DNA of 64,000 bases from Mytilus trossulus (Eukaryota). Below are positions 4,975-60,707 of this stretch, in pieces. The notes below the pieces were generated by a model, which saw only the letters and a program-made list of their open reading frames with translations, was not told the origin of the DNA and ran no database searches. Both the position numbers and the translations under genes were made by a program. The stretch lies in NCBI RefSeq assembly GCF_036588685.1, contig NC_086380.1:33530313-33594312 (forward strand), in the 5' to 3' direction. The first letter of the stretch is position 1, and each line of letters begins with the position of its first letter.

Positions 4975-5750
4975 TGGTGGATAATTTGTATTTACCATGG
5001 TCTAACTGAAAATGGAGTAAATCTATTAGGATCCTCTGCATTATAGGGGAGATAATTTATGTTCATTTCATTCAATTAGAAAGTGGAGTAAAACTATAAG
5101 GATCCTCTGCATTATAGGGGAGATAATTTATGTTCATCTCATTCAAGCAGAAAGTGGAGTAAAACTATAAGGATCCTCTGCATTATAGGGGAGATAATTT
5201 ATGTTCATCTCATTTAAGCAGAAAGTGGAGTAAAACTATAAGGATCCTCTGCATTATAGGGGAGATAATTTATGTTCATTTCATTCAAGCAGAAAGTGGA
5301 GTAAAACTATAAGGATCCTATGCATTATAGGGGAGATAATTTATGTTCATCTCATTCAAGCAGAAAGTGGAGTAAAACTATAAGGATCCTCTGCATTATA
5401 GGGGAGATAATTTATGTTCATCTCATTCAAGCAGAAAGTGGAGTAAAACTATAAGGATCCTCTGCATTATAGGGGAGATAATTTATGTTCATCTCATTCA
5501 AGCAGAAAGTGGAGTAAAACTATAAGGATCCTCTGCATTATAGGGGAGATAATTTATGTTCATCTCATTCAAGCAGAAAGTGGAGTAAAACTATAAGGAT
5601 CCTCTGCATTATAGGGGAGATAATTTATGTTCATCTCAATCAAGCAGAAAGTGAAAAAAAAACTATACAGATCCTCTGCATTATAGGGGAGATAATTCAT
5701 GTTCATCTCAATCAAGCAGAAAACGGAGTAAAACTATAAGGATCCTCCCC
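4975..5750 (-). repeat. 71-bp tandem array, about 11 copies, in gene A intron 10, derived from the exon 10/intron 10 junction
   Basis: Plus-strand monomer GGGGAGATAATTTATGTTCATCTCATTCAAGCAGAAAGTGGAGTAAAACTATAAGGATCCTCTGCATTATA. It aligns to 6001-6070, which is intron start GGGGAGATAATTCATATTTAC plus the exon 10 3' end. On the minus strand it reads DPYSFTP(L)SA…. Confidence 0.8.
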
Positions 5751-11602: not shown

Positions 11603-12304
11603 CTGTAAAGATAAAATGTATCTTTTTATAATTGTGCCCATTTAGCAATAATAGCAGCAGAAGTCTAACAACTTTTCTTAGAGACTGAACTATTGGTGTT
11701 TTTATGATTTGAAATTATGCACATCTTTCAAAATAGCTAGTAAATTTTAATATACATAAATCCATCTTAGTAAATGTATCAACAGATGAACTATTCAATT
11801 TAATAAATCTATTAGATGGGAAATTTGCCATGTGACATATTCAAAAAGTCAACTTTTAAAAATAAGCAATTAAAACATGTGACAATAAAATTGAGAATGG
11901 ACATGGGGAAAGTGTCAAAAAGACAACAAAAAAAAGAGCAGAAAACATTCAGCAGATATACATTTCTAGAAAGCATGCATTGGACTATTGTCAACTATTT
12001 TTTAATTATTTGGGAAAATATTTCAAAAAATCTGTTTTTAAAGGATTTACGTATGTAAAGTTGACAGCTTTGGATCCAATTTATTGTACTCTTCTTTACA
12101 GAATCATGTATTGTTCATGTTGTATGGAGGTAGGTTCAAACCAATTTTTCTAGGAATTAATTAAAATTTAAATTGATGGAATTATATAGTAAATAAGGAT
12201 ACATCTACATAAAGAAATGTAGTTGAAAAACTCAACATGGTTGCAATTTGGGTACCCTCACGTTAATCCTGAATGCCAATTGATGATTAGAAAATTTGAT
12301 ATAA

Positions 12305-14350
12305 TTTCTTACCCTACATCTTGTATATTTCCTTTGTATGACAGAGCACACTGTAACAAGATATCTAGATCTTACCCTACGTCTTGTATATTCCCTTTGT
12401 ATGACAGAGCACACTGTAACAAGATATCTAGATCTTACCTTACGTCTTGTATATTCCCTTTGTATGACAGAGCACACTGTAACAAGATATCTAGATCTTA
12501 CCCTACATCTTGTATATTCCCTTTGTATGACAGAGCACACTGTAACAAGATATCTAGATCTTACCCGACGTCTTGTATATTCCCTTTGTATGACAGAGCA
12601 CACTGAAACAAGATATCTAGATCTTACCCGACGTCTTGTATATTCCCTTTGTATGACAGAGCACACTGTAACAAGATATCTAGATCTTACCCTACGTCTT
12701 GTATATTCCCTTTGTATGACAGAGCACACTGTAACAAGATATCTAGATCTTACCCTACATCTTGTATATTCCCTTTGTATGACAGAGCACACTGTAACAA
12801 GATATCTAGATCTTACCCTACATCTTGTATATTCCCTTTGTATGACAGAGCACACTGTAACAAGATATCTAGATCTTACCCTACATCTTGTATATTCCCT
12901 TTGTATGACAGAGCACATTGTAACAAGATATCTAGATCTTACCCTACGTCTTGTATATTCCCTTTGTATGACAGAGCACACTGTAACAAGATATCTAGAT
13001 CTTACCCTACGTCTTGTATATTCCCTTTGTATGACAGAGCACACTGTAACAAGATATCTAGATCTTACCCTACATCTTGTATATTCCCTTTGTATGACAG
13101 AGCACACTGTAACAAGATATCTAGATCTTACCCTACGTCTTGTATATTTCCTTTGTATGACAGAGCACATTGTAACAAGATATCTAGATCTTACACTACG
13201 TCTTGTATATTCCCTTTGTATGACAGAGCACACTGTAACAAGATATCTAGATCTTACCCTACGTCTTGTATATTTCCTTTGTATGACAGAGCACACTGTA
13301 ACAAGATATCTAGATCTTACCCTACGTCTTGTATATTCCCTTTGTATGACAGAGCACATTGTAACAAGATATCTAGATCTTACCCTACGTCTTGTATATT
13401 CCCTTTGTATGACAGAGCACACTGTAACAAGATATCTAGATCTTACCCTACGTCTTGTATATTTCCTTTGTATGACAGAGCACATTGTAACAAGATATCT
13501 AGATCTTACCCTACGTCTTGTATATTCCCTTTGTATGACAGAGCACACTGTAACAAGATATCTAGATCTTACCCTACATCTTGTATATTCCCTTTGTATG
13601 ACAGAGCACACTGTAACAAGATATCTAGATCTTACCCTACATCTTGTATATTCCCTTTGTATGACAGAGCACACTGTAACAAGATATCTAGATCTTACCC
13701 TACGTCTTGTATATTCCCTTTGTATGACAGAGCACATTGTAACAAGATATCTAGATCTTACCCTACGTCTTGTATATTCCCTTTGTATGACAGAGCACAC
13801 TGTAACAAGATATCTAGATCTTACCCTACGTCTTGTATATTCCCTTTGTATGACAGAGCACATTGTAACAAGATATCTAGATCTTACCCTACATCTTGTA
13901 TATTCCCTTTGTATGACAGAGCACATTGTAACAAGATATCTAGATCTTACCCTACGTCTTGTATATTCCCTTTGTATGACAGAGCACACTGTAACAAGAT
14001 ATCTAGATCTTACCCTACGTCTTGTATATTTCCTTTGTATGACAGAGCACACTGTAACAAGATATCTAGATCTTACCCTACATCTTGTATATTCCCTTTG
14101 TATGACAGAGCACACTGTAACAAGATATCTAGATCTTACCCTACGTCTTGTATATTCCCTTTGTATGACAGAGCACACTGTAACAAGATATCTAGATCTT
14201 ACCCTACCTCTTGTATATTCCCTTTGTATGACAGAGCACACTGTAACAAGATATCTAGATCTTACCCTACGTCTTGTATATTCCCTTTGTATGACAGAGC
14301 ACACTGTAACAAGATATCTAGATCTTACCCTACATCTTGTATATTCCCTT
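12305..14350 (-). repeat. 63-bp satellite, block 1, about 33 copies, in gene A intron 4; monomer is the exon 4 3' end plus the intron 4 5' splice site
   Basis: Head-to-tail repeats with period 63. Minus-strand monomer ATCTTGTTACAGTGTGCTCTGTCATACAAAGGGAATATACAAGA[CT]GTAGG|GTAAGATCTAGAT. Copies differ by a few point substitutions (C/T, G/T). Confidence 0.9.
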
Positions 14351-14764
14351 TTTATACTGCAATCAGCTAGTTTACTGTACAGATAAAGCTATACGTATAA
14401 ACGTAAGCTTTATACGTCAATGACCCCAACTGACCTATAAGCCCCGCCTCCTTATTGTATTTCATCAACAACATCACGTCACGACCATGACAACGTAAAG
14501 TAACAATGGTCAAACTTTTTTCAATTTAAACTTTTATGTCTTCAAATTGGTTATTTATATATCATGTTTATCAAATGTTATTAATTAAGTTCATTTTCCC
14601 TTTCTAATTCCTTAATACGCCAATGTCTTACCACCTGGACTACGCTCATAGGGAAATACCCCAAAATGGTACCTCTAGAGGGAAATTCCAAACACTTTTT
14701 TTAACAATTTTTGTTACATGTTTTTTTCATTTTTCATTTTTTTTTTCGATTTCAGTATAAAAAC

Positions 14765-14895
14765 AATATACGTATAGTGTCTTGAAATATGAAATTTATT
14801 TGTATTCGGCAAGAAACGAGAAAATGCTCGGTAGAACCTCGCATTTTCCCATTTCTAAGCCTCATACAAATAAATTTCATATTTCAAGACACTAT
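14765..14895. repeat. Perfect 41-bp inverted repeat with a 49-bp spacer, lying between the two satellite blocks
   Basis: AATATACGTATAGTGTCTTGAAATATGAAATTTATTTGTAT (14765-14805) is the exact reverse complement of 14855-14895. The spacer holds a smaller palindrome GAAAATGC…GCATTTTC. Confidence 0.85.
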
Positions 14896-14897
14896 AC

Positions 14898-16515
14898 GTA
14901 TATTGTCTAAGTATGACAGAGCACACTGTAACAAGATATCTAGATCTTTATACCCTACGTCTTGTATATTCCCTTTGTATGACAGAGCACACTGTAACAA
15001 GATATCTAGATCTTACCCTACATCTTGTATGTTCCCTTTGTATGACAGAGCACATTGCAACAAGATATCTAGATCTTACCCTACATCTTGTATATTCCCT
15101 TTGTATGACAGAGCACACTGTAACAAGATATCTAGATCTTACCCTACGTCTTGTATATTCCCTTTGTATGACAGAGCACATTGTAACAAGATATCTAGAT
15201 CTTACCCTACGTCTTGTATATTTCCTTTGTATGACAGAGCACATTGTAACAAGATATCTAGATCTTACCCTACATCTTGTATATTCCCTTTGTATGACAG
15301 AGCACACTGTAACAAGATATCTAGATCTTACCCTACGTCTTGTATATTTCCTTTGTATGACAGAGCACATTGTAACAAGATATCTAGATCTTACCCTACG
15401 TCTTGTATATTCCCTTTGTATGACAGAGCACATTGTAACAAGATATCTAGATCTTACCCTACGTCTTGTATATTCCCTTTGTATGACAGAGCACACTGTA
15501 ACAAGATATCTAGATCTTACCCTACGTCTTGTATATTTCCTTTGTATGACAGAGCACATTGTAACAAGATATCTAGATCTTACCCTACGTCTTGTATATT
15601 CCCTTTGTATGACAGAGCACATTGTAACAAGATATCTAGATCTTACCCGACGTCTTGTATATTCCCTTTGTATGACAGAGCACATTGTAACAAGATATCT
15701 AGATCTTACCCTACGTCTTGTATATTCCCTTTGTATGACAGAGCACACTGTAACAAGATATCTAGATCTTACCCTACATCTTGTATATTCCCTTTGTATG
15801 ACAGAGCACACTGTAACAAGATATCTAGATCTTACCCTACATCTTGTATATTCCCTTTGTATGACAGAGCACACTGTAACAAGATATCTAGATCTTACCC
15901 TACGTCTTGTATATTTCCTTTGTATGACAGAGCACATTGTAACAAGATATCTAGATCTTACCCTACGTCTTGTATATTCCCTTTGTATGACAGAGCACAC
16001 TGTAACAAGATATCTAGATCTTACCCTACGTCTTGTATATTTCCTTTGTATGACAGAGCACACTGTAACAAGATATCTAGATCTTACCCTACATCTTGTA
16101 TATTCCCTTTGTATGACAGAGCACATTGTAACAAGATATCTAGATCTTACCCTACGTCTTGTATATTCCCTTTGTATGACAGAGCACACTGTAACAAGAT
16201 ATCTAGATCTTACCCTACGTCTTGTATATTCCCTTTGTATGACAGAGCACACTGTAACAAGATATCTAGATCTTACCCTACGTCTTGTATATTCCCTTTG
16301 TATGACAGAGCACACTGTAACAAGATATCTAGATCTTACCCTACATCTTGTATATTCCCTTTGTATGACAGAGCACACTGTAACAAGATATCTAGATCTT
16401 ACCCTACATCTTGGATATTTCCTTTGTATGACAGAGCACACTGTAACAAGATATCTAGATCTTACCCTACATCTTGTATATTCCCTTTGTATGACAGAGC
16501 ACACTGTAACAAGAT
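14898..16515 (-). repeat. 63-bp satellite, block 2, about 25 copies, abutting and overlapping gene A exon 4
   Basis: Same monomer as block 1. The last copy (16466-16515) is the genuine 3' end of exon 4, ending at the real AGG|GTAAGA donor. Confidence 0.9.
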
Positions 16516-16590
16516 TTCTAATGTAGCCAGTCCTGAATATTGAAACACTTCCACATATTTTCCATTCTTACTTTCCTCTGCAAACTTCTC
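16466..16590 (-). CDS. gene A exon 4 (EKFAEESKNGKYVEVFQYSGLATLEILLQCALSYKGNIQDVG); its last 50 nt are also the terminal monomer of the 63-bp satellite
   Basis: Acceptor TTTAACAG and donor AGG|GTAAGA. 125 nt as in genes B and C. Homologous to B (DKLASG...LLQCSLGYKGNVQLVG) and C (DKLAFM...LLQCALGYKGDVQQVG). Confidence 0.8.
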
Positions 16591-19914: not shown

Positions 19915-22295
19915 TGAAGGGTGGCCGGAGGGGTCCTGATCCCGAAATCCCGCGATTAAAACCATGAATCCAGAGATGCAGAATTAAAAGAAATGCATAT
20001 CCCGAAATCACGAAATCGAAAAATATATTCCAGGATCCAGTAAGGATCAATCCCCAAATCCCGAGCTTAAAAACACACGATCCCGACGCTCCGAAAAATG
20101 CTCGCCTACTTTTAATCTCTACCTTACTTTCATTTTTGCTAAATCACTATTTTCCCTTTCAACAATAAATTTGTATGCCCCATTTATGGGCATTATGTTT
20201 TCAGGTTAGTCTGTCCGTTCGTTCGCTCGTTCGTCTGTCCGTGTCTGTCCCGCTTCAGATTAAAGTTATTGGTCGAGGTAGTTTTAGATGAAGTTAAGCA
20301 TGTTTTACTTATTTTAATATATATGCAATTGGTATGACCCCTGAAGTAGTAAAACAGTAGACAGAATCAGGCCCGACTTTCTTTACTAACACAGAAAGTC
20401 CCATAGAGAATTAGATAGTCTCTATGTATCAAAGTAGTATAATCGTAGTTTACATGTAGATAAACGCGAAAAATTATTAATTGTCCTCTCTAAGGAGGTA
20501 TAATAGTTGTGATTCGTGCGATCTAAACATCATGATATGGAGAACGCTTTGAATGGCTTATTTTTTTTTCTCCATTTTTGTTATCCATCATACGATTGGT
20601 TGTACTTGTGTCAAATATTTTACTTATTTTAATATATTATATATACAACTGGTATGACCCCTTAATAGTAAACATTTCAAAGAAAACAGTAGACAGAATA
20701 CAGAGAGTCTCCATATATTAAAGTATAATAATCGTAGTTTACATATAGATAAACACGAAAAATAATTATTGTCCTCTATAAGGAGGTATGATAGTTGTGG
20801 TTCATGCGATCTAAACCCCATGCTATGGAGAACGCTCTAATTGGCTTATTTATTTTTCATATTTAGTTATCTATCATACGATTGGTTGTATTTGCGCATC
20901 TTTCAAACCGGAAATTTAATCTATGACTAAAAGTTAGTCCGATGACGGAATCATATCCGGACTCCTTTTTTCTCTTTTTTCTCCCAAAATAACTCAATCT
21001 GAATAATCATAAGAATGGATGACAAATGGGACTATGCATGTTACCTATAGGACACAGAGACATGATGATTGATTTATTGTGGAAGGAAGAGAAGCGACAC
21101 CCAAAATGAGGTCTTCTCGTTTAATAGTATAGATATCATACAAGTTTTTGCATTGACATTATTTCATCATCTGATCCAGGGAGATAAGATGAGGCAGAGG
21201 TACTGCGATCTAGCTATGCACTTCCAACCACTGCAGACATGACAGAATTATGTGCCTTCTGGATTTCAAAAGCCTGTAGTCCACTGAATGGTTGTCTTTG
21301 GTAGCTTTCTGCAATAATGAATCTCTGTTCATCATGTTCATGTTGTTTAATGTTATATTAGCTTAAAGTTAAACCATGCTGTTTCCTGAATTTGTTATCC
21401 AGCATCTTTTTAAATATTGGTTTTGCTCATTTTTGAAGGATGAAATTGGTATGCATGACTTATTACAGTAGAAGTTAGCAATCATCCTTGAACTTATAGA
21501 TCTCCAGGTGGTGGATTATAAGTTGTCTCATCAGCATTACCTCATTTTTTATATCTTAATGATCAGTTTTAAACATGAGGGTGAATGACAAACTTCAAAA
21601 ACATAAAAGACTCCTGGCAATGGTCCATTCTCTTCAAAGGCATCATATGCACATGTACATGCATGGATGTATGTACTGGTAGATTAATACAACCTATCAC
21701 CAATGACAATACACGAACAAACATCAAAGGACTGTTAGAACGTTTGGCTAGCTTTTTGACAGTGGCTATCCTAGTCCAATTTGGTGTAGGTATTATTACA
21801 CAAACATACCCAGGAAAATGACACAATATATTACAGAAGAAAGTCTACATTATAAATTATATTACTTTGACTTATTAGGTGAGGCCAGACCAGCATATCC
21901 ATGGAGTCTTTAAATATACGCTTCTCATTGGTTTTTGTACGACTACCAGTACTAACAATGCATTGTGATGTCACAATTTCCATTAAAAAAGCATTCATAG
22001 TACAAATTCATATGACGTACGAAAACATATGATCTGACCATACTTATTAGCCTGAATACGGTTACCAGATATAGTATGACATATAATTGGGGGGGGGGGG
22101 GGGGGGGGGGGGGGCCTTTATCGGGACTCCGGGATCGGGTGTTTTTTTAAGCTCTGGATTTCAGAATTGATCCTTTCGGGATCTGGGAATTCTTTTTTCG
22201 AATTTCGGGATGTCAGGATTTAAATTTCTTTAAATACGGGACCTCAGGATTTCATGTTTTTAAGCCTGGGATTTCTGGATCAGGACCCCTCCAAC
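19915..22295. mobile_element. ~2.4-kb element with ~190-bp diverged terminal inverted repeats and a G26 run at the inner edge of the right TIR; 0.5 kb upstream of the gene A ATG
   Basis: Left TIR 19915-20106 and right TIR 22085-22292 are about 75% identical as reverse complements (GGAGGGGTCCTGATCC…ATCCCGAAAT…). Interior holds a 300-bp tandem duplication (20285-20590 / 20590-20885) and fragments of other repeat families. Confidence 0.6.
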
Positions 22296-22770: not shown

Positions 22771-24119
22771 GTATATTCCTACCCTCCTAAATTTCCAGTT
22801 TTAATATAATGTTGTCTATTGTTATAATAATGGAGGATTTCAAGCATTAATACCTCAGTCTCATAAATCGGAAAACATATAAGCAAGTCTGTACTTAAAA
22901 CAGAAGATTGAAGAAGAGTGAGCTTAAAGGATCTGTTAGTGACATACTGTCACGAACAAACTTGTTTCATAAATAAATTCTCAGTTCGGGATGTAGTGCA
23001 TAGGGGAGGGAAACGAGCATTGAATTTCGATTCGCAAAAAATGTCAACAAAATGAAGGGACAATGAATGTTATCGAAAGGATTTATAGAATAGCAAAAAT
23101 CTATCTATTTGCTTGCTAGATTTTGTGAATTTTTTCGTTCAGGTAAACTAGTTGTAACTTAATATTTTACATCATGGTAAGTTATGATTTATTTCGGGAT
23201 CTACGTTTAAATGGGGCATAATTCTAAAAAAGGGGGAGGACAAAATGACATGATCAAATCCCTATTGTGATTCGTAGTTTTTAGATTATATTTGGCTCTG
23301 TTGTTAGAAGATTGGCATGTAGATAGACACGTAGACATGACTTTTGAATGACCCTGATGGCCTTGTGCTGTTTTCCGCTGCTCTTTGGTCAGGTTGTTGT
23401 CTCTTTGACACATTCACCGTTTCCATTTTTAATTTTATATAGCTGGGAATAGTATTGTCAACATATTATGTCCCAGGTTTTAAAAGCATGAATGTTTTAG
23501 AGCTATATAACTGATAAAATTTATTAAATTGCCTCGGCATGTAAAATGTAAAACAAAGAACAGCTGACAACCTGACAACCTGATTAATGTACAATGAAAA
23601 ACAAATATATTAAAGATAACGGCAACAACTGACTCACTCATCAGATTGATTGATTGATTGGTGTTATAACACCGTTTTCATCACTTAAATGTGCTATTTC
23701 TTATCAGTTTTTAGTAGTGAAATCAATAGTCATGATAGTGCCATGCAGAGAGAACCACCAAATTCGACTACTAATAGACCACCCTGCAACCAAAGCCCCC
23801 CCCCCCCCCCCCCCATTGGCTCATCAGACCAACACAAATCACACTAAAAATCAACTATAGCAAAAAGATTTAAGAGACATAACTATTTAAAGTAACGTTC
23901 TTCATGCAAACTGTACAAAAAAAGACTTTATTAAATACGTCATGTTTGCTAGTACAAACTAGTCCTACAGGAATGTACAAGGAATCTAGTAGGAATTTGT
24001 TATGAATTAATTCCTAACAGGAAAGTGTGCATATTCCAGCTTCATTGTAGCAGAAATCCACCAGGAAAAACAGCCTAGGATTTTCTTAGTTAAGGAATAA
24101 TGTGATTCCTACTAGGTAT

Positions 24120-25562
24120 ATATATTCAAATTTATTTTACACCACTGGGTCGATGCCACTGCTGGTGGACGTTTCGTCCCCGAGGGTATCACCAGCCCAG
24201 TAGTCAACACTTCGGTGTTGACATGAATATCAATAATGTGGTCATTTTTATAAATTCCTGTATACAAAACTTTGAACTTTTTGAAAAACTAAGGATTTTC
24301 TTATCCCAGGCATAGATTACCTTAGCAGTATTTGGCACAACTTTTTGGAATTTTGGATCCTCAATGCTCTTCAACTTTGTACTTGTTTGGGTTTATAAAT
24401 ATTTTTGATTGGAGCGTCACTGATGAGTCTTATGTAGACGAAACGCGCGTCTGGCGTACTAAATTATAATCCTGGTACCTTTGATAACTATTTACACCAC
24501 TGGGTCGATGCCACTGCTGGTGGACGTTTCGTCCCCGAGGGTATCACCAGCCCAGTAGTCAACACTTCGGTGTTGACATGAATATCAATAATGTGGTCAT
24601 TTTTATAAATTTCCTGTATACAAAACTTTGAACTTTTTGAAAAACTAAGGATTTTCTTATCCCAGGCATAGATTACCTTAGCCGTATTTGGCACAACTTT
24701 TTGGAATTTTGGATCCTCAATGCTCTTCAACTTTGTACTTGTTTGGTTTATAAATATTTTTGATTGGAGCGTCACTGATGAGTCTAATGTAGACGAAACG
24801 CGCGTCTGGCGTACTAAATTATAATCCTGGTACCTTTGATAACTATTTACACTTCTGGGTCGATGCCACTGCTGATGGACGTTTCGTCCCCGAGGGTATC
24901 ACCAGCCCAGTAGTCAACACTTCCGTGTTGACATGAATATCAATAATGTGGTCATTTTTATAAATTTCCTGTATACAAAACTTTGAACTTTTTGAAAAAC
25001 TAAGGATTTCTTATCCCAGGCATAGATTACCTTAGCCGTATTTGGCACAACTTTTTGGAATTTTGGATCCTCAATGCTCTTCAACTTTGTACTTGTTTGG
25101 GTTTATAAATATTTTTGATTGGAGCGTCACTGATGAGTCTTATGTAGACGAAACGCGCGTCTGGCATACTAAATTATAATCCTGGTACCTTTGATAACTA
25201 TTTACACCACTGGGTCGATGCCACTGCTGGTGGACGTTTCGTCCCCAAGGGTATCACCAGCCCAGTAGTCAACACTTCGGTGTTGACATGAATATCAATA
25301 ATGTGGTCATTTTTATAAATTTCCTGTATACAAAACTTTGAACTTTTTGAAAAACTAAGGATTTTCCTATCCCAGGCATAGATTACCTTAGCCGTATTTG
25401 GCACAACTTTTTGGAATTTTGGATCCTCAATGCTCTTCAACTTTGTTCTTGTTTGGGTTTATAAATATTTTTGATTGGAGCGTCACTGATGAGTCTTATG
25501 TAGACGAAACGCGCGTCTGGCGTACTAAATTATAATCCTGGTACCTTTGATAACTAATTATA
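24120..25562 (+). repeat. Tandem array of four ~359-bp retrozyme-like units, each containing a hammerhead ribozyme motif
   Basis: Unit starts at about 24126, 24487, 24846 and 25204, with over 97% identity. Each carries GGAGCGUCA-CUGAUGA-GUCU(uaugu)AGAC-GAA-A-CGCGCG-U-C|UGGCGUAC. Confidence 0.85.
24411..24465 (+). ncRNA. Type-I minimal hammerhead ribozyme (copy 1; equivalent copies near 24771, 25129 and 25487)
   Basis: Conserved core CUGAUGA…GAAA. 4-bp stem II GUCU/AGAC with a 5-nt loop. Helix III is reduced to an A:U pair closing a palindromic CGCGCG loop. GUC cleavage triplet. 7/8-bp stem I (GAGCGUCA / UGGCGUAC, including G:U wobbles). Confidence 0.7.
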
Positions 25563-26640
25563 GCAGGAATAAATTGTCAGGAAAGTAAAATTCCTACCAG
25601 GATTCCTGTCAACTTTCCTTCTAATTTGAATATTCCTGGTAGGATTTTTTCATAAATTCCTACTAGGAAAGTTGATTTTCTAGCAGGAATTAATATAAAT
25701 ATATGTTATAAACTGAAGTGTTTACACATTACACAACTGGGTCATTCGTTAGTTTGAATATCAGCCACATATAATAGAACAAAGAATATACATATTTAAA
25801 CTTCTTCTCAAATACCTTCATAAGCAATCCTGTCTTATATATTCAAATATTTCCCTGATAATTATTTAATCTTTGCAGCATTGTTTTTACACAATCTGAA
25901 TCTTTTACCCTCCAACTTTTGAAATTGTAAACTGGAACCTGGTTGCTAATATAACACAGCAAAATAAATGTTATTAGCAAACTGGAATTCAGTTAAAGAT
26001 AATTGAATACAAATCAATATCAGTCAAGATAATAATCCTGCTTGAATAAGAAAAAAATCCTGGTTAGAAAGATTTTCTAGCAGGTAAAAAAAATTTCTGT
26101 TAGTAACCCAGGAATCTTGTAGGAAAATGAAAAATCCTGCCAGAAAAAACAAATTTTTTCTTAGTACGTCTAAAACAGGGATTTAAGATTTGCTGCCAAT
26201 TCCATGTGAATTCCTGCTATAGTTTAGTAAGAATCCTGCTAAATATTTCATACGGGCAGTCAGGTAAAATGCCATTCTCGAGAAAGTAAATACTGCATGC
26301 CTGGTATATTTTCACAAATATATATACCCAATGTGAACATTATATATATCTGTTTAATTTCACAGAATACTAATAGAATAATTAAAACCTTTGTAAATCA
26401 ATTCCATTGTTTTCTTGGACTAGCATTTATTAATCTTTACTGAAATTAGTTTATTTTAATAGAGCAGTGCACGACTATTTATGTTAAATGATTGCTTTGT
26501 TTAAAAAAGAACACAAAAAAATTCAGTTGAATAACGTGAATTGTAGATAAATTTCAAAATTACACTATCTGTTACATACGTACCCTACAATACTGATTAG
26601 CTAGTTGAATTCAAGTGAAAATAATAATCTTAATGATACG

Positions 26641-26690: not shown

Positions 26691-28914
26691 CAGTTAGGGT
26701 AAAATGTGTTAAAATCCTTGCCGTCAAGTCCAAATTATAACATGTATTCCTGATTCCATTCAACACTTGCACTCAGGGTGAGTATTTTATTAGTTCCAGG
26801 GAGCTTATTGAAGATTAAAGTGACAATCCCAAGAGTCTGAAATAAAATTTGATCAATATGTACAACATGCATGTACATCAATTGATGTAAGGAATGAAGT
26901 ACAAATTAGATGAAATTGATTTGGTTTATCTATATATACAATTGTGATTACAAGTATATGTGTATGGCAGCCTCGGACAAGAAACAACATATTTTATTCA
27001 GTATCCAGAATTCAGTTTTCTATTTTACCATAGGATCTCTGTATTTGTCAATGTCAAAACATAAATATATATACAAAGATAGATGTGACGGTTTTTATTT
27101 ATGTAAATACATATAATATATTATATATTAATTATCAGATTATCATGATTATCAAATATATATATGTTTTTTTTTCCTTTCATCATTTTATTCCTAAAAT
27201 CATGGTAACCTCAGAAATCATTGTAATATCATAAAAGATTGCAATAAAGATAATTCTGTCTGTTATTGCATAGATCTGTAATGAGTATCTTTGATTGACA
27301 ATGAATTATTGACCTTGAACTTGAACTGTATTATCTAAATACATTTATATATATATATATATATATATAATAGTAATGTTGACAATGTAGGTATAATTTA
27401 AGGAATGCGTTTAGGGTACTTTTATTTACAGAATATAACTATTAAAAGTCTTTTAATCATGTTAATGTCTTATGATATATATATATATTTATATCATATA
27501 TCTTGCCTTTTAATATTTAAATCTACATTACCCATTAATAGATTCAGCCAAATATGTTTTAACAGATCCTCTAGATTTAAGATTTAAAGCTCGGACATTT
27601 ATCAGTACAGGTAAACTCAGTTTGGTGCATTCAACTTCCACTTATGTTGATTAAACATTGTGTAGTACATGTTTATATATATAAATAACAAGGACAAACA
27701 AATGTAAACTACCTACTGTTTTGGAGCAAACACTTGGGATATTACACCTTATTTCAGGTAAAACTATGAACTAAGTGGTCTAGCTTAAAATCACTGGTCA
27801 GTACATTCATCATTAAACTTTACACTAATAGCATTGATTATATTTCATGTATTATATTACTTTGGTTTTAAAGTTACAAAGTAACTAAATCTTATAAAAC
27901 TTCTTTTACATGTACTTTTTAGCCCACCTGGCCCAAAAGGGCCAAGTGAGCTTTTCTCATCACTTGGTGTCTGTCGTCTGCCGTTGTCGTCGTCTGTCGT
28001 TGTCATCGTTGTCCGTTTACTTTTACAAAAATCTTCTCCTCTGAAACTACTGGGCCAAATTAAACCAAACTTTGCCTAAATCATCCTTAGGGTATCTAGT
28101 TTTTAAAATGTATCCAAAGACCCTGGCCATCAACCAAGATGGTCGCCATGGCTAAAAATAGAACATGGGGGTAAAATGCAGTTTGTGGCTTATATCTTTG
28201 AAACTAAAGCATTTATAGCAAATCTGAGAAGGAGTAAAATTGTTCATCAGGTAAAGATCTATCAGCCCTTAAAATTTCAGACGCATCAAACAACCCCTTG
28301 TTGGGTTGCTGCCCCTGAATTGGTAATTTTAAGGAAATTTTGCAGTTTTTGGTTATTTTCTTGAATATTTTAATAGATAGAGATAAACTGTAAACAGCAA
28401 ACTTGTTCAACTGAAGATATCAAGGATTTGTATAATAGTAAGACATATTCTTGGTGATATTTAAATAATGGCCCAGTCTCAACAGTTAAACAGAAATGGC
28501 TTTGTAAAAGGGCAACTGAGTTACTAATATAAACATCATAAACATGGTCTTTATTTAATTGGGGGGTTTTAATGACTACAAACTGTTCTTACTAAGCTAT
28601 TTATAAAATTTTACTGAAATTAGTTCATTGACTAATGGAACTTTTGCATAGTTTACATGATTAAAGTTTTAATGTTTAGGTGAATTGAAAGGGAACCAAT
28701 TTTGATAAGTCAGTGGTATCCGCAGTGGTGTTTGATTGGTAGATGAATTGACTTAAAGCATTGGCAATTTTCTCTTCATTTCCATGGAGGTAATTGGGCT
28801 CTGAAACTTTAGTCATGATTCATTAACGTTGAATAATTTAAATTGTTTATATGTTCAAATTATAAATGCCATTTTGATTTTATAAATTTCATTATTCTAT
28901 CAAAATTACATAAA

Positions 28915-29290
28915 TAAAATTGAGAATGGAAACAGGGAATGTACATGTCAAAGAGACAGCAACCGGACCAAAGAGAAGAAAACAGCTCAAGGCCACCAAT
29001 GGGTCTTCAACACAGCGAGAAAATCCTGCACCCAGAGATAGGCTTCAGCTGGCCCCTAAACAAAAATTTGTACTAGTTCAGCGAAAATGGACGTCACACT
29101 AAACTCTGAAACTCATAAATGATTATTTTTTTAAACATACAAGACTGTAACAAAGGCCAGAGGCTCCTGACTTGGGACAGGCACAAAAATGTGCCACATT
29201 AAACATGTTTTGCATGATCTCAACCCTCCCCCTATTCCTCTAGCCAATTTAGAATAAACAAACACACAGAATCTGAGTCAGATGTTAGAA
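28915..29290 (+). mobile_element. SINE-like interspersed repeat, family 'AAATTGAGAATGGAAA…', copy ending ~175 bp upstream of the gene B ATG
   Basis: Homologous copies or fragments at 11865-11995 (+), 23200-23460 (−), 30855-31260 (−), 58590-58720 (+), 4260-4340 and possibly 8840-9080. Confidence 0.6.
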
Positions 29291-29630: not shown

Positions 29631-30239
29631 GTAATAATTATTTCATGTTGGATTTATATAGCTTTTTCTCTAATTCTTCATGAATTTATCCCTTTCTGCA
29701 CCCATTGTATAACAAAATTTAATCAACGTGTGGTTCGTTTGATATCAGTTCATCATTGGTTTAAATCCGATTATGACGTCGAATTTTAATGCTTTCTTCT
29801 GAATTTTCTATTGTGACGGCATGAAAAAAGGTGACCATGCCTGATGACGTCACATAGAAAGAACACATCTTTTTGCAGATCATTCATAAAGAAGGAATAT
29901 GTTTGCCTGCATATTGTTTGAAAATCCCGATCATTAGAGAAACATTTAAATTTCTCGGCGAGCCTCACGTTTCAAATTTGAAAATTTAACTGTCTCAAGT
30001 GGATAAATATCATATTACACTTGATGCAGTGGTAGAATCTATATTTATCATGTTTATGTAAATCTTCCTTTATTTAGGGATAATTGTTATAAGCCTTATT
30101 TTCACCAAACTTACATAACTTAAACACTACCCTTTTTCAATCATGATCAGTCAAATAAAAAAAGTTACGAAATTATTAGATCTCATCAAGACTTTTTGTT
30201 TATATAGATTAGACCGTTGGTTTTCCCGTTTGAATGGTT

Positions 30240-30420
30240 TTACACTAGTAATTTTGGGGCCCTTTATAGCTTGTTGTTCGGTGTGAGCCAAGGCTCCGTG
30301 TTGAAGGCCGTACTTTAACCTATAATGGTTTAATTTTTAAATTGTTATTTGGATGGAGAGTTGTCTCATTGGCACTCACACCACATCTTCCTATATCTAT
30401 TTAATGGTATCTGGATGTAC
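30240..30420 (+). repeat. ~150-bp SINE/MITE-like family (…TTATAGCTTGTTGTTCGGTGTGAGCCAAGGCTCCGTGTTGAAGGCC…GGATGGAGAGTTGTCTCATTGGCACTCACACCACATCTTC…)
   Basis: Copies or fragments at 6540-6600, 7745-7800 (−), 9200-9330, 10250-10395, 41385-41460, 42250-42310, 43150-43210, 53590-53710 and 60335-60375. Confidence 0.6.
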
Positions 30421-30854: not shown

Positions 30855-31260
30855 CTGACATCAGACTCAGACTTCTCTTGAACTGAATTTTAATGTGCGT
30901 ATTGTTATGTGTTTACTTTTCTACATTGGCTAGAGGTATAGGGGGAGGGTTGAGATCTCACAAACATGTTTAACCCCGCCGCATTTTTGCGCCTGTCCCA
31001 AGTCAGGAACCTCTGGCCTTTGTTAGTCATGTATTATTTTAGTTTTAGTTTCTTGTGTACAATTTGGAAATTAGTATGGCGTTCATTATCACTGAACTAG
31101 TATATATTTGTTTAGGGGCCAGCTGAAGAACGCCTCCGGGTGCGGGAATTTCTCGCTGCATTGAAGACCTGTTGGTGACCTTCTGCTGTTGTTTTTTTCT
31201 ATGGTCGGGTTGTTGTCTCTTTGGCACATTCCCCATTTCCATTCTCAATTTTATCTATTT
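30855..31260 (-). mobile_element. Inverted copy of the same SINE-like family, in gene B intron 1
   Basis: Reverse complement of 28915-29290 (…GGCCTTTGTTA…CATCTGACTCAGA…). With the upstream copy it brackets exon 1 of gene B. Confidence 0.6.
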
Positions 31261-33099: not shown

Positions 33100-34670
33100 A
33101 ATTTACGTTTATTGGTATGACGTTGGCGTCGTCGGCGTCCGAAGACACATTGGTTTTCGCACTATAACTTTTTTTTAAGTAAATAGAAATCTATGAAATT
33201 TAAACACAAGGTTTATGACCACAAACGAAAGGTTGGGATTGATTTTGGGAGTTTTGGTCCCAACAGTTTAGGAATTAACTTGGGGCCAAAAAAGGGCCCA
33301 AATAAACATTTTTCTTGGTTTTCTCACAATAACTTTAGTATAAGTAAATAGAAATCTATGAAATTTAAACACAAGGTTTATGAACACAAAAGGAAGGTTG
33401 GTATTGATTTTGGGAGTTTTGGTCCCAACAGTTTAGGAATTAGGGTCCAAAAAGGGGCCCAAATAAGCATTTTTCTTGGTTTTCGCACAATAACTTTAGT
33501 ATAATTAGAAATCTCTGAAATTTAAACACAAGGTGTATGACCATAAAAGGAAGGTTGTGATTGATTTTGGGAGTTTTGTTCCAAACAGTTTAGGAATTAG
33601 GGGCACAAAGGGTCCAAATTAAACTTTGATATGACGAATCTAACTGTGTATGTAGATTCTTAATTTTTGGTCCCGTTTTCAAATAGGTCTACATTAAGGT
33701 CCAAAGGGTCCAAAATTAAACTTAGTTTGATTATAACAAAAATTGAATTCTTGGGGTTCTTTGATATGCTGAATCTAAACATGTACTTAAGATTTTTTAT
33801 TATGGGCCCAGTTTTCAAATTTGTCCAAATCGGGGTCCAAAATTAAACTTTGTTTAATATTGATTTCCACAAAAATTGAATTCTTGGGTTTCTTTGATAT
33901 GCTGAATCTAAACATGTACTTAGATTTTTGATTTTGGGCCCAGTTTTCAAGTTGGTCCAAATCGGGGTCCAAAATTAAACTTTGTTTGATTTCAACAAAA
34001 ATTAAATCCTTGTGGTTCTTTGATATGCTGAATCTAAGCATGTATTAAGAGTTTAGCTTATGGGGCCAGTTTTCAAGTTGGTCCAAAATTAAACTTTGTT
34101 TGATATCAACAAAAATTGAATCCTTGGGGTTGTTTGATATGCTGAATCTAAACATGTATTTAGATTTTTGATTATAGGCCCAGTTTTCAAGTTGGTCCAA
34201 ATGGTGGTCCAAAATTAAACTTTGTTTGATTTCAACAAAAATTGAATATATGGGGTTCTTTGATATATGCTGAATCTAACCATGTATTTAGATTTTTGAT
34301 ATTTGGGCCCAGTTATCAAATTGGTCCACATTGAGGTCTTAAGGGTCCAAAATTGAACTTTATTTGATTTCATCAAAAATTGAATTCTTGGGGTTCTTTG
34401 ATATGCTGAATCTAACCATGTATTTAGATTTTGAATATTGGACCATAATAGGTAAATGTCCAATTTAAAATTTTTAAGTTTTTAAGTTTAAGTTCTTAGA
34501 ACACATTCATTCTGTGTCAGAAACCTATTTGGTGTCAACTGTTTAATCACAATCCAAATTCAGAGCTATATCAAGCTTGAATGTTGTGTCCATACTTGCC
34601 CCAACTGTTCAGGGTTCAAACTCTACAGTTGTATAAAGCTGCGCCCTGCGGAGCATCTAGTTTTTCTACA
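33100..34670 (+). repeat. Composite repeat: ~170-bp tandem units (x3), then ~120-bp tandem units (x6-7), then a conserved 180-bp tail; a related copy lies at 37250-38190
   Basis: Shared motif AAGGTTGGGATTGATTTTGGGAGTTTTGGTCCCAACAGTTTAGGAATTA. Shared tail …TTGAATGTTGTGTCCATACTTGCCCCAACTGTTCAGGGTTCAAACTCTACAG. Both copies are in gene B intron 3. Confidence 0.7.
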
Positions 34671-37250: not shown

Positions 37251-38398
37251 GATTGGTATAATGCTATGATGTCGTTTGAGACACATTTGGTTTCAGGACA
37301 ATTACTTTAGTTTTAGTATATGGATCTCTATGAAATTTTTAAAGAAGGTTCATTACCACAAAAGGAAGGTTGGGATTCATTTTTGGGATGATGGTCCGAA
37401 ATGTTTAGGAAAAAGGGGCCCAAAACAAGCATTTTTCTAGTTTCAGGATAATAACTTGTGTATAAATATTTGGATTGCTCTGAAATTGTACCACCATGTT
37501 TAATACCACAAGTAGAAGGTTGGGATACATTTTGGGGGTTTTGGTGCCAACAGTTTTGAAATTAAGGTCCAAAAAGGGGCCAAAAACAAACATTTTTGTA
37601 GTTTCCAGACAATAACTTGTGTGTAAGTGTATGGATCTGTCTGACATTGTATGACAAGGTCCCATATCACAAAGTAAAGGCTGGGATTAAGTTTGGGGGT
37701 AACTTCCCCAAACATGCAGGAATTAGGGTAAAAAAAAGGGGCAAAAAACAAGCATTTTTCTAGTTTCCAGACAATTACTTGTGTTTAAGTGTATGGATCT
37801 CTCTAAAATTGTACTACAAGGTTCCATACAACAAAGGAAAGACTGGGATTGAGTTTGATGGTTACTGCTCCAAAGTGGGAATCAAAAAGTTCGGGGAGGG
37901 GGGTTTCCAATTTTTTAAGGGGTTCATATTTTATTTTTTTTATTTTTCAAATTTCAAATATTTGAAAAGTTTCAAGAAGATTAAATCTTCAGTTGCACAG
38001 TATTGCCCATTAGATTTGTAAGATCGTTGACCACATTAATTTTGTGTCAGAAACCTATATTATGTCAAAATTTTGATCACAATTGAAATTCATATAGTAT
38101 GCAAGCTTGAATATTGTGTCCAAATTTGCCCCAACTGTTCAGGGTTCAACCTCTGAGGTCGTATCAGGCTGCACTCAGCGAAGCATTTTATTTATTGTGA
38201 AAAATCAACAATAAGAAGTATTTTTAACTAAGTGTATAAAATGTAATTTGCTATAAATGTTAAATTTTTATTGATAGACTATGATAGAGCAATTAAAAAT
38301 GTTATGTTGCTAATAATTGTTGATTTCCATTTATATATACAAATGTAAGATATAAGAAATTAATGTTTGTGCATAATTGTTTTTCTCTTTTTTAACAG

Positions 38399-55289: not shown

Positions 55290-55583
55290 CAGCAACCATT
55301 TGATTTTCTGGGGGGGGGGGGGGGGGGGGGGGGGGCTATGGTTTTTTTTGGAAAAAAAAGTTTGTTTCAAGTTTTTGGAGAAAAAAATAATTTGTTTTTG
55401 ACCCTGGGAAAAAAAAATTGTTTGTTTCACCCTCAGCTGCCACTATATATAATGCTAAATTTGAAAGAAAAAAAATGTTTTCGACTTGTCGCCAAAAAAA
55501 TAGCAAAGGCGAAAAAAAAAGTCTGTCCAGAAAAAAAATCCATAGCCCCCCCCCCCCCCCAGAAAATCAAATGGTTGCTGCCT
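55290..55583. mobile_element. ~295-bp foldback or MITE with ~60-bp TIRs that include a long poly-G/poly-C run
   Basis: GGCAGCAACCATTTGATTTTCTGG-(G)~33-CTATGG … CCATAG-(C)16-CAGAAAATCAAATGGTTGCTGCC. Confidence 0.65.
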
Positions 55584-56520: not shown

Positions 56521-56696
56521 TTAGTTGTTCATCAAATGTCGTATGTTTCTATATTCTTCATTTTATCTTCCATTATCTTTTCATGATATATATAATTTTC
56601 ATGATTGCAATTATTAACTTATTATTTTCTCATTATACATGCTTTAATCACTTTAACTTCATAATTCTATCTTAAGGGACTACATTAAGTAGAGCA

Positions 56697-56861
56697 ATGG
56701 GTACTATAACATGGACATTCATAGTTGGTGCTGTTACCTTGGTGATGACATACATTGGAATAAAGCTGTACAGATATTTTAAATGGCTGAGATATGTCCA
56801 TAAAACTTTATCCAAATTACCAGGTCCAAAACCACACTGGTTATTTGGAAATATTTTTCAG
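56697..56861 (+). CDS. gene C exon 1 (MGTITWTFIVGAVTLVMTYIGIKLYRYFKWLRYVHKTLSKLPGPKPHWLFGNIFQ)
   Basis: ATG at 56697. Donor CAG|GTAATT. Within ORF 56697..56924. Confidence 0.85.
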
Positions 56862-57284
56862 GTAATTTGTAAACAATTCAGCATATATATATATATCATA
56901 AATATTGAAATTTCACCTCTTTAATTTGTCTTTTGTTATTAAAAAAAAGATAATAGCTATATAAGTAGTAGCATGTTGCTTTGTAAGCATGTAAAAAATT
57001 ATATACTTTTGATGGCAAGCAGGAAATCAATATTGTTCATTATATGGTTCATTATGTTGGGTGTATGTCAATAAGGCAGCAAATCAATTAGATAATTAAG
57101 AAGGGTGGATTTTCAGGGGTTTTAACCCCCTTTAGAAAACATGTGGATCTGCCCCTGCAAAGCATGGTTAAACATGGTAAAACTTCGGTTGTTGGACTCT
57201 TTTTGATTCCATACATTTTGGGTTGAGGTGCAATTCAATTAGAGTCAACTTTATTAATCGTGTCACATTTTTTGTGTTTTGCAG

Positions 57285-57486
57285 ATAACAAATTTTAGTG
57301 AATTCCATAATAAATGTCATGAAGAATTCATAGTGCAGAAAAAAGTGAAGATATATGTGTTTTGGCTGTCAACGTTCTTTCCAACTGTGATGCTGGCACA
57401 TCCAGATACTATCAAAGAAGTGATGAGGTCTAATTCACCAAAGCCTACGGTAGGACCAGGATACCCATTCCTTGTACCTTGGCTAG
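57285..57486 (+). CDS. gene C exon 2 (ITNFSEFHNKCHEEFIVQKKVKIYVFWLSTFFPTVMLAHPDTIKEVMRSNSPKPTVGPGYPFLVPWL-G)
   Basis: Acceptor TTTTGCAG and donor GTATGA. The ORF-track entry 57279..57728 starts at an alternative TTG, not an ATG. Confidence 0.8.
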
Positions 57487-57846
57487 GTATGAAAATATTT
57501 CAGATCATTTCAATATGGGTGTTTTTTCAAATACTTTGCAGGTCAGGAATCATTATTATCCTTGGGAAACAATTTTTGTGGATTTCGTGGGTATATTTAA
57601 ACCATGAATTTAAATGTTTTACAAATCACCAACTTTCATTAGACATGAATGCAGACTTTTGCTTTACCATGAAATCATATATCCATGAAAAAACAAATTT
57701 TCTTCAATCTAAGAAAATGGGTATCTAGGAAAATGAGTCAACAGTACCATAAGAATAAAAAGGTTATAATGGGATGACAAACTAATGAAATAGATATAAA
57801 AGGGGTTCTGTAAAGGTATTATTTTTTCTGGTTTTTATATGTCATG

Positions 57847-57985
57847 TTCTCTACTAGTCCAAATAATTATGACGTCTGGCAAGGCTATTTTAATTTTTTT
57901 CTAGGACGCCTTCCTCTGACGTCGTAGGAAGGCGTCCCAGAAAAAATTTAAAATTGCCTTGCCAGACGTCATAATTATTTGGACT
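57847..57985. repeat. ~140-bp near-perfect palindrome (hairpin or MITE) in gene C intron 2
   Basis: ACTAGTCCAAATAATTATGACGTCTGGCAAGGC…TTTTTTCTAGGACGCCTTCCT | AGGAAGGCGTCCCAGAAAAAA…GCCTTGCCAGACGTCATAATTATTTGGACTAGT. Confidence 0.75.
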
Positions 57986-59056
57986 AGTTATTTTAATATC
58001 TGTAAATACATTTTAGTTTTATGATTGTCTTACATTAATGTTAAGTTTAATTATCTCCCCTGAATTAAACTTATTAATTTAAATGATACATTCTAAGTCT
58101 TCAACCAAAGTTTGGTGAAAGATTCTAAGACTTGTGTCTTTACGTGGGCGCCATTTGTAGTGCAATATATAAAATGATAATAAAAATCACTCTGCTACAT
58201 ATATAAATAAATGGATACACATACTTGTTTATTCCTTGAGTTTAGCATAGGAACATTGAATGTCTAAGATATTATAATTGAATTCCACATCAAAATTTGA
58301 CATCCTATTAAATGTGAAAGGTTATTTATTGACAAATATACTTCAGATTTAAACTCTTTTGTCCAATGAAAGGAAAGATGTATTGCAAATTACTATAGAA
58401 GTACTAAGTTGATACTTTTACAAATAATTTTGACATTGCAGCAGGGAACAATGAATGTGTTGAGCAAAGACAATTTATGAAGCTAAGGACTTTCTTCATC
58501 TTATTTTCGTTTTTACAGTAGACTTAAGATTGACAGAATTCCATTAGAAGCATTTATATCAACATGATCAAATATATAAAACTTAGAATGGAAATAGGGA
58601 ATGTGTCAAAGAGACAATAATCTGACCAAAAAGTAGAAAATAGCTAATGGCTATTAATGGATCTTAAATACAGGGAGAAAATCACATGCACTTGTCTCAG
58701 AAAACAAATGTTATATTAAGGTATAAGGGGGGAAAAAATTCTGAGACAAGTCCTGTAGAGAAAATCTTGCATGGGGAGCAAAGCTTCAAGTTCAGCTTCA
58801 GAAAACATTTTTTAAGAATATGCATAAAGTATAAATAATAATATCTTTATTTGCAAAACATACAACAACCAATTTTGGTTGTGGCAAATACATTGACAAA
58901 CAAACATAATGAAACATAATGAAAACTAAATCTATTCTATTATCTCTAACTGCTGCATTATCAAAACCAGTATACAATGACAAATTTGTACATTTCTTCT
59001 TCCTTCATTAAGTCCTACAAAATTGTTACCATTTTCCATTCCTATTCCTTTTATAG

Positions 59057-59184
59057 GTCAAAGCCTTCTTTTATCAAATGGAGCTAAATGGGAGAGAAAT
59101 CGTCGATTGTTGACGCCAGCTTTCCACTTCAGTATTTTGACGGGGTATTTCAAGATTTACAATGAAGTAACAGATGTATTGATG
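59057..59184 (+). CDS. gene C exon 3 ([43 protein letters not shown])
   Basis: Acceptor TTTTATAG and donor GTGAGT. Within ORF 59023..59409. Confidence 0.85.
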
Positions 59185-59214
59185 GTGAGTAAGATATCAG
59201 TGCCTTTCTTTAAT

Positions 59215-59400
59215 ATTGAGGGGGGGGGGCAGGAAGTTTTGCCAGATGTCTGGGTTTTGGGGATTGATCCTTTCGAGATCTGGTTTTTTTTTTTATTTTC
59301 GTTATGTTTGGATACAATTTTTTTTAAATTTGGGACCTCAAGAATCGTGATTTTAGGCCCAGGATTTCGGGATCAGGGCCCCTCTGACCCCCTTCAATAT
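59215..59400 (+). repeat. Solo copy of the poly-G-headed TIR sequence of the 19915-22295 element, in gene C intron 3
   Basis: G10 followed by sequence homologous to the right TIR 22115-22292 (GGGATTGATCCTTTCGAGATCTGG…GGATTTCGGGATCAGGGCCCCTC). Confidence 0.6.
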
Positions 59401-59876
59401 TCCACTTAAAAAGTTGTTATATTAACATAAGAAGATGTGATATAATTTGCGATGAGACAGCTATCCACAAGGGACAAAATGAAACAGAAATTTACAATTA
59501 TAAGAAAATTAACAGCCTAATTGATTTAAAAATGATGTCTAGTAAATGAATGATAAGTTTTTTTAATAAAAGTAGTCTCAATTAAATATTTGATACTATG
59601 GGAGTTTACCATTAAGTAAAGATTTGAGGAATTTTAGAAAATGTATCTGTTGAGAAATAAACAAAGGGGAAGCTGGTCGTATCCAGTTTTATCATGTTGA
59701 TAATGTAGTACATTTGTTAAATATAATAATATTTTCAAGGTACTATGATTATGCTTATTGAAACCAAACATGCTGAAGTAAACAATCGAAAAACAAAAAG
59801 AGACAAAAAATTGTAAAATCCTTACTGATTTGATCACATAGCTACCACATAATTCTTGTGAAAACATTTATTTTAG

Positions 59877-60644: not shown

Positions 60645-60707
60645 AGAACACCATCCATATGTAATAGCAGTGAATAGACTTGGTTTTCACATTCAGGAAA
60701 GATGCTT
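60645..60707 (+). CDS. gene C exon 5 (G-EHHPYVIAVNRLGFHIQERC-L)
   Basis: Acceptor TTTTCAG and donor GTGAGT. 63 nt. Confidence 0.8.

Follow-up and report, generated by a model that had tools for sequence, protein, structure and literature searches.

The 64-kb stretch of Mytilus trossulus DNA analyzed here (contig NC_086380.1, called the window throughout) carries on its plus strand a head-to-tail array of four units that is very probably a genomic insertion of the mussel non-LTR (long terminal repeat) retrozyme family, a non-coding, non-autonomous retroelement. The family was described and experimentally characterized in Mytilus galloprovincialis by Cervera and de la Peña (2020, PMC7229834), and the array is assigned to it because the unit is homologous over its whole length to the M. 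galloprovincialis retrozymes that were tested; the element is not new, and the locus is one more copy of a published family. Hammerhead retrozymes represent a ribozyme-based route to abundant animal circular RNAs (circRNAs) and a model for the spread of non-coding parasites. The locus adds no new principle to this, and offers a clean, young four-unit example; the analysis of insertion junctions, given below, is the only added value, as a testable handle on the retrotransposon that mobilizes mollusc retrozymes.

Tandem Repeats Finder reported a period of 355, 4.0 copies and 97% matches for the array (24136-25560), and alignment of the four units with MAFFT gave a mean column identity of 98% with 13 variable columns. 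The four tandem copies of the original prediction, an annotation made earlier from the same stretch, were thereby recovered, with the period corrected from ~359 bp to 355-356 bp. The array has a GC content of 38.8%. The ribozyme pattern CTGATGAGTC-N7-GACGAAACGCGCGTC occurs on the plus strand four times, once in each unit (24420, 24775, 25130 and 25486), with 0 matches in dinucleotide shuffles of the window. The CpG observed/expected ratio of the unit is 0.88, against 0.44 for the window, and the 12 CpGs per unit lie chiefly in the ribozyme and the conserved hairpins. Across the four units only 4 of 48 CpG sites have been lost, and because so few are missing in a CpG-depleted genome the array is young and its insertion recent.

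Each unit contains a type I hammerhead. In the covariance search that had been proposed as a check, all four matched Rfam RF00163 (Hammerhead_1, type I; gathering score 34 bits) over the full model at 33.0-35.0 bits, with local-search E-values of 1.5e-6 to 7e-6. The catalytic core (CUGAUGA, GAAA, GUC) is intact in four of four units and aligned to the invariant positions of RF00163, and the topology is that of type I with an open-ended helix I. In helix I, an internal loop separates six contiguous pairs (GCGUCA/UGGCGU) from a short upper stem; helix II has 4 bp (GUCU/AGAC); and helix III has 2 bp (A-U and C-G) capped by a GCGC tetraloop. The complete type I hammerhead in every unit, its GUC cleavage site and the 4-bp stem II had all been read correctly beforehand. 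The stem I of 7-8 bp claimed at the same time is interrupted after its sixth pair, and helix III, described as one A:U pair around a 6-nt loop, can instead form A-U and C-G around GCGC. The label "minimal" was also misplaced, as the authors class the mussel ribozyme as a canonical type I hammerhead with a 2-bp helix III and tetraloop and keep "minimal" for the hammerhead variants of Penelope-like elements. Mussel hammerheads do lack most of the nucleotides usual in the tertiary contacts between loop 1 and loop 2 (Cervera & de la Peña 2020, PMC7229834).

Among 22 ribozyme copies, 86.6% of the cells in helices I-III and the upper stem are paired, as compared with 24-50% when the registers are slid by 1-3 columns. 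Failure of the stems to pair across copies had been named in advance as a potential refutation, and pairing was found to be kept. Departures from it are mostly CpG transitions in decayed copies; double changes occur at four pairs, and helix II is nearly invariant. When constrained, the hammerhead fold is feasible at -8.9 kcal/mol. An Rfam search found no ribozyme on the minus strand, which removes a viroid-style minus-strand ribozyme from consideration, and a search of the rest of the window for other hammerheads, including those of the Penelope-like minimal kind, turned up only a decayed solitary copy of the unit.

Compared with the M. galloprovincialis genomic clone Mg353, the unit shows 82% identity over 343 aligned columns that span its whole length, and it also aligns end to end with the gonad circRNA consensus (both sequences are from the supplement of PMC7229834, that of Mg353 from Table S2). 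The ribozymes of the unit and Mg353 are identical from stem I to stem I save for one loop-2 base (UUAUGU versus UUUUGU). The unit length of 355 bp compares with 350-390 bp in M. galloprovincialis; the core, helices I-III and a GC-rich hairpin domain are common to both, as are tandem organization and low GC content. The differences amount to 18% divergence, with changes in loop 1 and upper helix I, a 3' tail that reads ...GATAACTATT in the window type and ...GATGAGTTTATT in the M. galloprovincialis retrozyme, and absence from the window type of a ~29-nt segment found in the M. galloprovincialis circRNA consensus. Of the two ribozyme families, A and B, in Figure S4 of PMC7229834, the window type may be the second.

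Conservation extends beyond the ribozyme. The GC-rich hairpin domain, which includes the GGACGUUUCGUCC hairpin, is approximately identical to that of Mg353 save for two compensatory stem pairs (GGACG/CGUCC versus GGAGA/UCUCC), and RNAalifold applied to 13 copies of it predicted 19 pairs, of which 5 show double changes. In a third hairpin, GUCAACAC-UUCG-GUGUUGAC, one stem pair is A-U in window-type, G-U in metagenome-derived and G-C in Mg-type copies. An origin of the unit from a transfer RNA or other known RNA was rejected (ARAGORN returned 0 hits, and Rfam at E up to 1 gave the hammerhead and a chance rliG match only). RNA polymerase III A- and B-boxes in the conserved domain, judged by eye only, were likewise set aside, the box-like strings being in the wrong order.

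What is established for the family bears directly on the array. According to PMC7229834, each genome holds ~5000 copies of the hammerhead, carried in 350-390-bp repeats; a single-ribozyme Mg353 construct self-cleaves co-transcriptionally in vitro with an observed rate constant of ~0.1 per min; RtcB circularizes the monomer in vitro; and abundant circRNAs of the family were detected in M. galloprovincialis gonad, mantle, gill and hepatopancreas by northern blot, and also by reverse transcription PCR. The same work describes metazoan non-LTR retrozymes as head-to-tail repeats of ~170-400 bp that carry one type I hammerhead apiece, have a GC content below 45-50%, and are non-coding and without LTRs. 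The array agrees with this description in its 4.0 x 355 bp, one hammerhead per unit, GC content of 38.8% and lack of an intact open reading frame (ORF). No LTRs were found, as the two flanks of the array show no relationship to one another or to the unit; the search did not extend to a primer-binding site or polypurine tract. By analogy with the M. galloprovincialis data, unit-length circular RNA may come from the array, and the earlier proposal that a multimeric transcript self-cleaves into circularizable unit-length RNAs gains support from homology to a family in which this has been shown experimentally.

The life cycle that may be proposed begins with transcription of the plus strand through the array, which would give a multimeric RNA. 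Each unit of it could fold as a type I hammerhead, with helix I (GCGUCA/UGGCGU) and its upper extension, GUCU/AGAC, and AC/GU capped by GCGC, around the core CUGAUGA...GAAA. Cleavage, as shown for Mg353, would occur after GUC at 24451, 24806, 25161 and 25517, and from the spacing of these sites three monomers would be freed: 24452..24806 (355 nt), 24807-25161 (355 nt) and 25162-25517 (356 nt). A host RtcB-type ligase could circularize the monomers, as the homologue is circularized in vitro. The RNA would then be copied by a reverse transcriptase acting in trans, whose source, to judge from the anatomy of the junctions, is most likely a Penelope-like element. Copying would start at a fixed site 41 nt downstream of cleavage and give products that always end in ...GATAACTAT(T), some of them truncated at the 5' end and the others exceeding one unit in length.

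Several observations weigh against this account. At the array locus itself transcription is only predicted, and cleavage is carried over from the homologue. ORF and Pfam searches found no reverse transcriptase or Penelope-like element in the window or the fetched loci, and for this reason the mobilizing partner is drawn from the literature; the only ORFs of at least 110 aa are satellite artefacts, and the spacer ORFs have no Pfam domain. Three of the four ribozymes fall 0.7-1.0 bit below the RF00163 gathering score (E 5e-6 to 7e-6), and only unit 3 passes; in that unit, a CpG-type G-to-A change (UGGCAU) produces a C.A mismatch and a weakened stem I. Covariation among the ribozyme copies is thin, because the copies and the family are young. 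The isolated segment reaches its minimum energy (-12.2 kcal/mol) in a fold other than the canonical hammerhead, which lies at -7.7 to -8.9 kcal/mol, and the whole monomer is no more stable than shuffled sequences (z = -1.0), a value that also rules out an unusually stable rod-like fold of the monomer. Finally, no target-site duplication beyond chance was seen, with junction words no longer than those of random pairs in 10 of 11 insertions.

A rival reading has the locus as a real retrozyme array but an inert fossil, transcriptionally silent and yielding no circRNA, the published circRNAs having come from other copies. This has some claim to consideration and is judged somewhat unlikely. The array contributes only four units among thousands of family copies, stem I of unit 3 is weakened, and the window's other copy is clearly defunct; moreover, none of the circRNAs cloned by the authors is an exact match to a database copy (PMC7229834). 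Set against this are the four intact catalytic cores, together with the 98% identity of the units and the retention of 44 of 48 CpGs in a CpG-depleted genome, which indicate a young array that has decayed little.

The original prediction also had the ribozymes acting as dimers, and in a strict form of this idea the ribozyme works only as a double hammerhead, in which two units pair through the palindromic ACGCGCGU to give an 8-bp intermolecular helix III. Dimer action is physically reasonable, because two 71-nt ribozyme segments co-fold in silico into a double hammerhead at -35.9 kcal/mol, as compared with 2 x -12.2 for the monomers, and the ACGCGCGU self-duplex accounts for -14.7 kcal/mol when taken alone. 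Cleavage by the mussel ribozyme, at 0.1 per min, is slower than the 0.8 per min of the coral ribozyme, and a 2020 review notes that a weak helix III often blocks cleavage by a single motif. A dimer is nevertheless not required, since the Mg353 construct, whose single ribozyme has the same helix III, cleaves itself while being transcribed (PMC7229834), and according to the authors one motif suffices for efficient cleavage by the retrozyme ribozymes of invertebrates, only those of amphibians needing dimers. The double hammerhead is strongly favoured in silico, but obligate action as a dimer appears unlikely.

Further copies of the family were obtained within the window and in public sequence. 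The solitary copy in the window (unit positions 229-356) has a mutated hammerhead core, an insertion giving CUCAGAUGAG and GAAAC being changed to GAAAU, and scores 23.5 bits in Rfam; it ends at the common 3' terminus ...GATAACTATT. A translation search with the minus-strand ORF of the unit returned 74 "proteins", each a single sequence of 53-154 aa lacking recorded domains, and all 11 contigs fetched for these matches belong to one ENA metagenome assembly, in which mussel DNA is evidently present. Three more contigs were obtained by scanning metagenome contigs with a DNA pattern. By BLAST, more than 25 copies lie on 15 contigs, mostly from this one host-contaminated assembly, so that with the window the distribution is dispersed and multi-copy. 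The window type and the Mg type co-occur in the host of that metagenome, at least once on one contig. The ribozyme pattern had zero matches in collections of viral contigs and genomes and of prokaryotic genomes. Two copies have lost the ribozyme exactly, in L005 (7033-7345, minus strand) by deletion between two GCGTC direct repeats, one in the 5' strand of stem I and the other at the cleavage site, and in L004 (1149-1484, minus strand) by deletion from GAGCGT to the terminal TGATAA; both keep the family 3' terminus.

The junctions of these insertions share one end. In 21 of 21 readable insertions the 3' ends coincide within ~2 nt, 41 nt downstream of the cleavage site, with the terminus ...TTTGATAACTAT(T) in the window type and ...ATGATGAGTTTAT(T) in the Mg type, and none of the 21 continues into the TACACCACTGGG of a next unit. 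Neither the start nor the end of the array falls at a ribozyme cleavage site. The 5' ends vary, falling at unit positions 10, 54, 142, 143, 153, 209, 209, 229, 229, 261, 269, 287, 305, 312, 317, ~325, 344, 352 and 353. Many insertions are shorter than one unit, several span ~1.1-1.2 units and one, in L007, ~1.6 or more, and there are arrays of 3.0 units (L013) and 4.0 units (the window). The junction sample is small and biased toward copies with the ORF region. Within it, the 5' ends may tentatively cluster near the start site (344, 352, 353, 10) and around the ribozyme (287-325), and if true, such clustering would fit a circular template. Independent insertions with equal 5' truncation were also seen (229 twice, 209 twice, 142/143 twice; Table 1), which suggests preferred stop sites of reverse transcription or truncated master copies. 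Copies of the array flanks, sought elsewhere as empty sites, were absent from the fetched loci.

This anatomy, with its fixed 3' end, truncated 5' ends, partial tandems and multicopy head-to-tail insertions, is the one that Craig et al. (MBE 2021, PMC8557442) described for Penelope-like elements and the non-autonomous elements derived from them. Going by their anatomy, the insertions behave like dependants of a Penelope-like element, which does not show that the retrozyme is itself one. It is tentatively proposed, as a real possibility short of an expectation, that reverse transcription starts at one fixed site ~41 nt 3' of cleavage, in a tail block UCCUGGUAYCUWUGAURA present in both subtypes, and yields insertions that are 5'-truncated or longer than one unit, as in Penelope-like elements. 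If true, the tail would be a recognition or priming element tying mollusc retrozymes to a specific Penelope-like partner. Such a fixed start of copying is not stated in the retrozyme literature consulted for comparison. The 2020 review found in metazoan retrozyme repeats no conserved motif that would reveal the mobilizing element; the fixed terminus, lying within a conserved tail block, may provide a handle of this kind. A 2026 preprint has tested the link to Penelope-like elements in vertebrates only.

The same preprint proposes local amplification of Penelope-like terminal sequences into tandem repeats, and this raises the question of whether the four copies arose by tandem duplication of one inserted unit at the DNA level, through unequal crossing-over or replication slippage in the manner of satellite DNA, and not by reverse transcription of a circular or multimeric RNA. 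The array is almost exactly integer in units (4.0), and the window holds several unrelated tandem arrays. This origin is considered improbable. The array shares the family-wide 3' terminus with solitary copies, and a single unit has no internal repeat on which unequal exchange could start. At unrelated loci, partial tandems (1.1-1.6 units) and 3.0-unit arrays are found repeatedly, and such recurrence is what reverse transcription past one unit length predicts.

That the repeat encodes a small protein, in an 80-95-aa ORF on the minus strand, can be dismissed with near certainty: the ORF is present in units 2 and 4 and matches the 74 database "proteins", but it is antisense to the ribozyme, has no Pfam match, and has its frame broken between units, specifically in units 1 and 3, because of 1-bp indels, and the database matches are single-sequence gene calls lying on other retrozyme copies. 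The original prediction had guessed that the ORF was fortuitous, which these results bear out; its length, given there as a repeated 80 aa, varies across the units (51, 56, 95, 56 and 80 aa).

The coordinates of the array and of other features are collected in Table 1. Peptides of the CYP4-like gene at 56.7-63.3 kb were used to locate two CYP4-like paralogues, and the window thus holds three cytochrome P450 family 4-like paralogues, of which A and B are head to head and B and C share 65-94% amino-acid identity across exons. The array lies in the A/B spacer of ~10 kb, on the strand of gene B and ~3.9 kb upstream of its first detectable exon; the placement in a ~10-kb head-to-head intergenic region had been given earlier and is confirmed by first detectable exons at ~19428 (minus strand) and ~29460 (plus strand).

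Table 1. Coordinates of the retrozyme array, related insertions and other features (window positions unless a contig is named)
Feature	Position	Strand	Basis or remark
Head-to-tail tandem retrozyme array, 4.0 units, period 355-356 bp	24136..25560	+	Tandem Repeats Finder; unit alignment; BLAST of unit against window
Hammerhead, unit 1	24414-24457	+	RF00163 33.0 bits, E 7e-6, full model; predicted cleavage after C24451
Hammerhead, unit 2 (loop 2 AAUGU)	24769-24812	+	RF00163 33.3 bits, full model; predicted cleavage after C24806
Hammerhead, unit 3 (UGGCAU stem I)	25124-25167	+	RF00163 35.0 bits, full model; predicted cleavage after C25161
Hammerhead, unit 4	25480-25523	+	RF00163 33.0 bits, full model; predicted cleavage after C25517
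Conserved GC-rich hairpin domain, including the GGACGUUUCGUCC hairpin (24167-24179)	24145..24200	+	repeats 24500-24555, 24855-24910, 25210-25265
Third hairpin	24203..24222	+	repeats 24558-24577, 24913-24932, 25268-25287
3' tail of ~41 nt, UGGCGUACUAAAUUAUAAUCCUGGUACCUUUGAUAACUA, last cleavage site to insertion 3' terminus	25518..25556	+	common terminus of readable insertions
Solitary 5'-truncated, decayed copy, unit positions 229-356, 89% identity	44786..44918	-	BLAST; just past gene B exon
Insertions at common truncation points	window 44918; L010 5355; L004 5559; L013 5360; L005 8552; L006 2632
Gene A, CYP4-like	exons 19428 down to ~8100	-	peptide matches
Gene B, CYP4-like	exons 29460 to ~44560	+	peptide matches
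Gene C, CYP4-like	56680-63300	+	paralogue, in tandem with gene B
Tandem array unrelated to retrozyme, 71 bp x 10.4	5008-5747
Tandem array unrelated to retrozyme, 165 bp x 3	33150-33624
Tandem array unrelated to retrozyme, 126 bp x 5.7	33706-34432
Tandem array unrelated to retrozyme, 162 bp x 2.9	37410-37874

Other repeats were noted around the array and elsewhere in the window. Short motifs of the ATTCCTRNYAGG type, in both orientations, surround the array at 23960-24120 and 25560-26250, in a cluster also rich in short inverted repeats; all five exact matches in the window (5 of 5) lie within ~130 bp of the array edges, where 0.17 would be expected by chance, and the cluster could represent either a hairpin-rich element of older date or a site favoured as a target. 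A G26 tract (22089-22114) and a C19 tract (23796-23814) lie 1.7 kb apart and end 320 bp upstream of the array, with flanks that are not clearly inverted, and a second pair, G26 (55310-55335) and C15 (55546-55560), 210 bp apart with perfectly inverted flanks, constitutes a foldback element. A 63-bp satellite at 12307-16520 (67 copies, 87% identity), which is intronic because it lies between exons of gene A, gives rise to artefactual ORFs of 500-690 aa in several frames on both strands. Three of the tabulated arrays, at 33150-33624, 33706-34432 and 37410-37874, are inside gene B introns. The segment 49342-49617 matches plant MIR6217 on both strands at ~51 bits, far under the gathering score of 110; from the matches on both strands it is a long palindromic hairpin, and probably a MITE-like (miniature inverted-repeat transposable element) element and not a real MIR6217 member. 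Interspersed repeats at 30208-30403, 30981-31254 and 23345-23441 are 77-94% identical to the metagenome contigs L005, L006 and L007 and recur in the window, where related sites lie at 28911-29010, 31173-31257, 58573-58636 and 11885-11947.

Among known hammerhead systems, amphibian satellite 2, the axolotl HHR_Amex1 and HHR_Amex2 and other RF00163 members resemble the array in being tandem repeats of ~330-350 bp with a type I hammerhead in each, and their weak helix III is likewise capped by a palindromic tetraloop. They have no sequence similarity to the mussel unit outside the ribozyme core, and HHR_Amex1, in which helix III is 1 bp, depends on dimers, whereas helix III of the mussel ribozyme has 2 bp and a single motif is enough for its cleavage. 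The Avsunviroidae and other viroid-like and satellite circRNAs are also small circular RNAs processed by hammerheads, but they replicate from RNA to RNA and usually have ribozymes in both polarities, in contrast to the array, which is genomic DNA with a ribozyme on one strand.

Plant LTR retrozymes share with the array a non-coding, non-autonomous character and the use of hammerheads to free RNAs that get circularized. They differ in having type III hammerheads in LTRs of ~350 bp, a primer-binding site and polypurine tract (neither was searched for in the array), 4-bp target-site duplications and a GC content above 55%; in the array no LTRs or target-site duplication were found, and the GC content is 38.8%. 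Penelope-like elements have in common with the mussel insertions a fixed 3' end, frequent 5' truncation, partial head-to-tail tandems, non-autonomous multicopy arrays and a type I hammerhead near the 3' end. Unlike these elements, the array has no reverse transcriptase or GIY-YIG ORF in or near it, and, where the minimal hammerheads of Penelope-like elements lack helix III and loop nucleotides, its ribozyme keeps helix III and an extended helix I.

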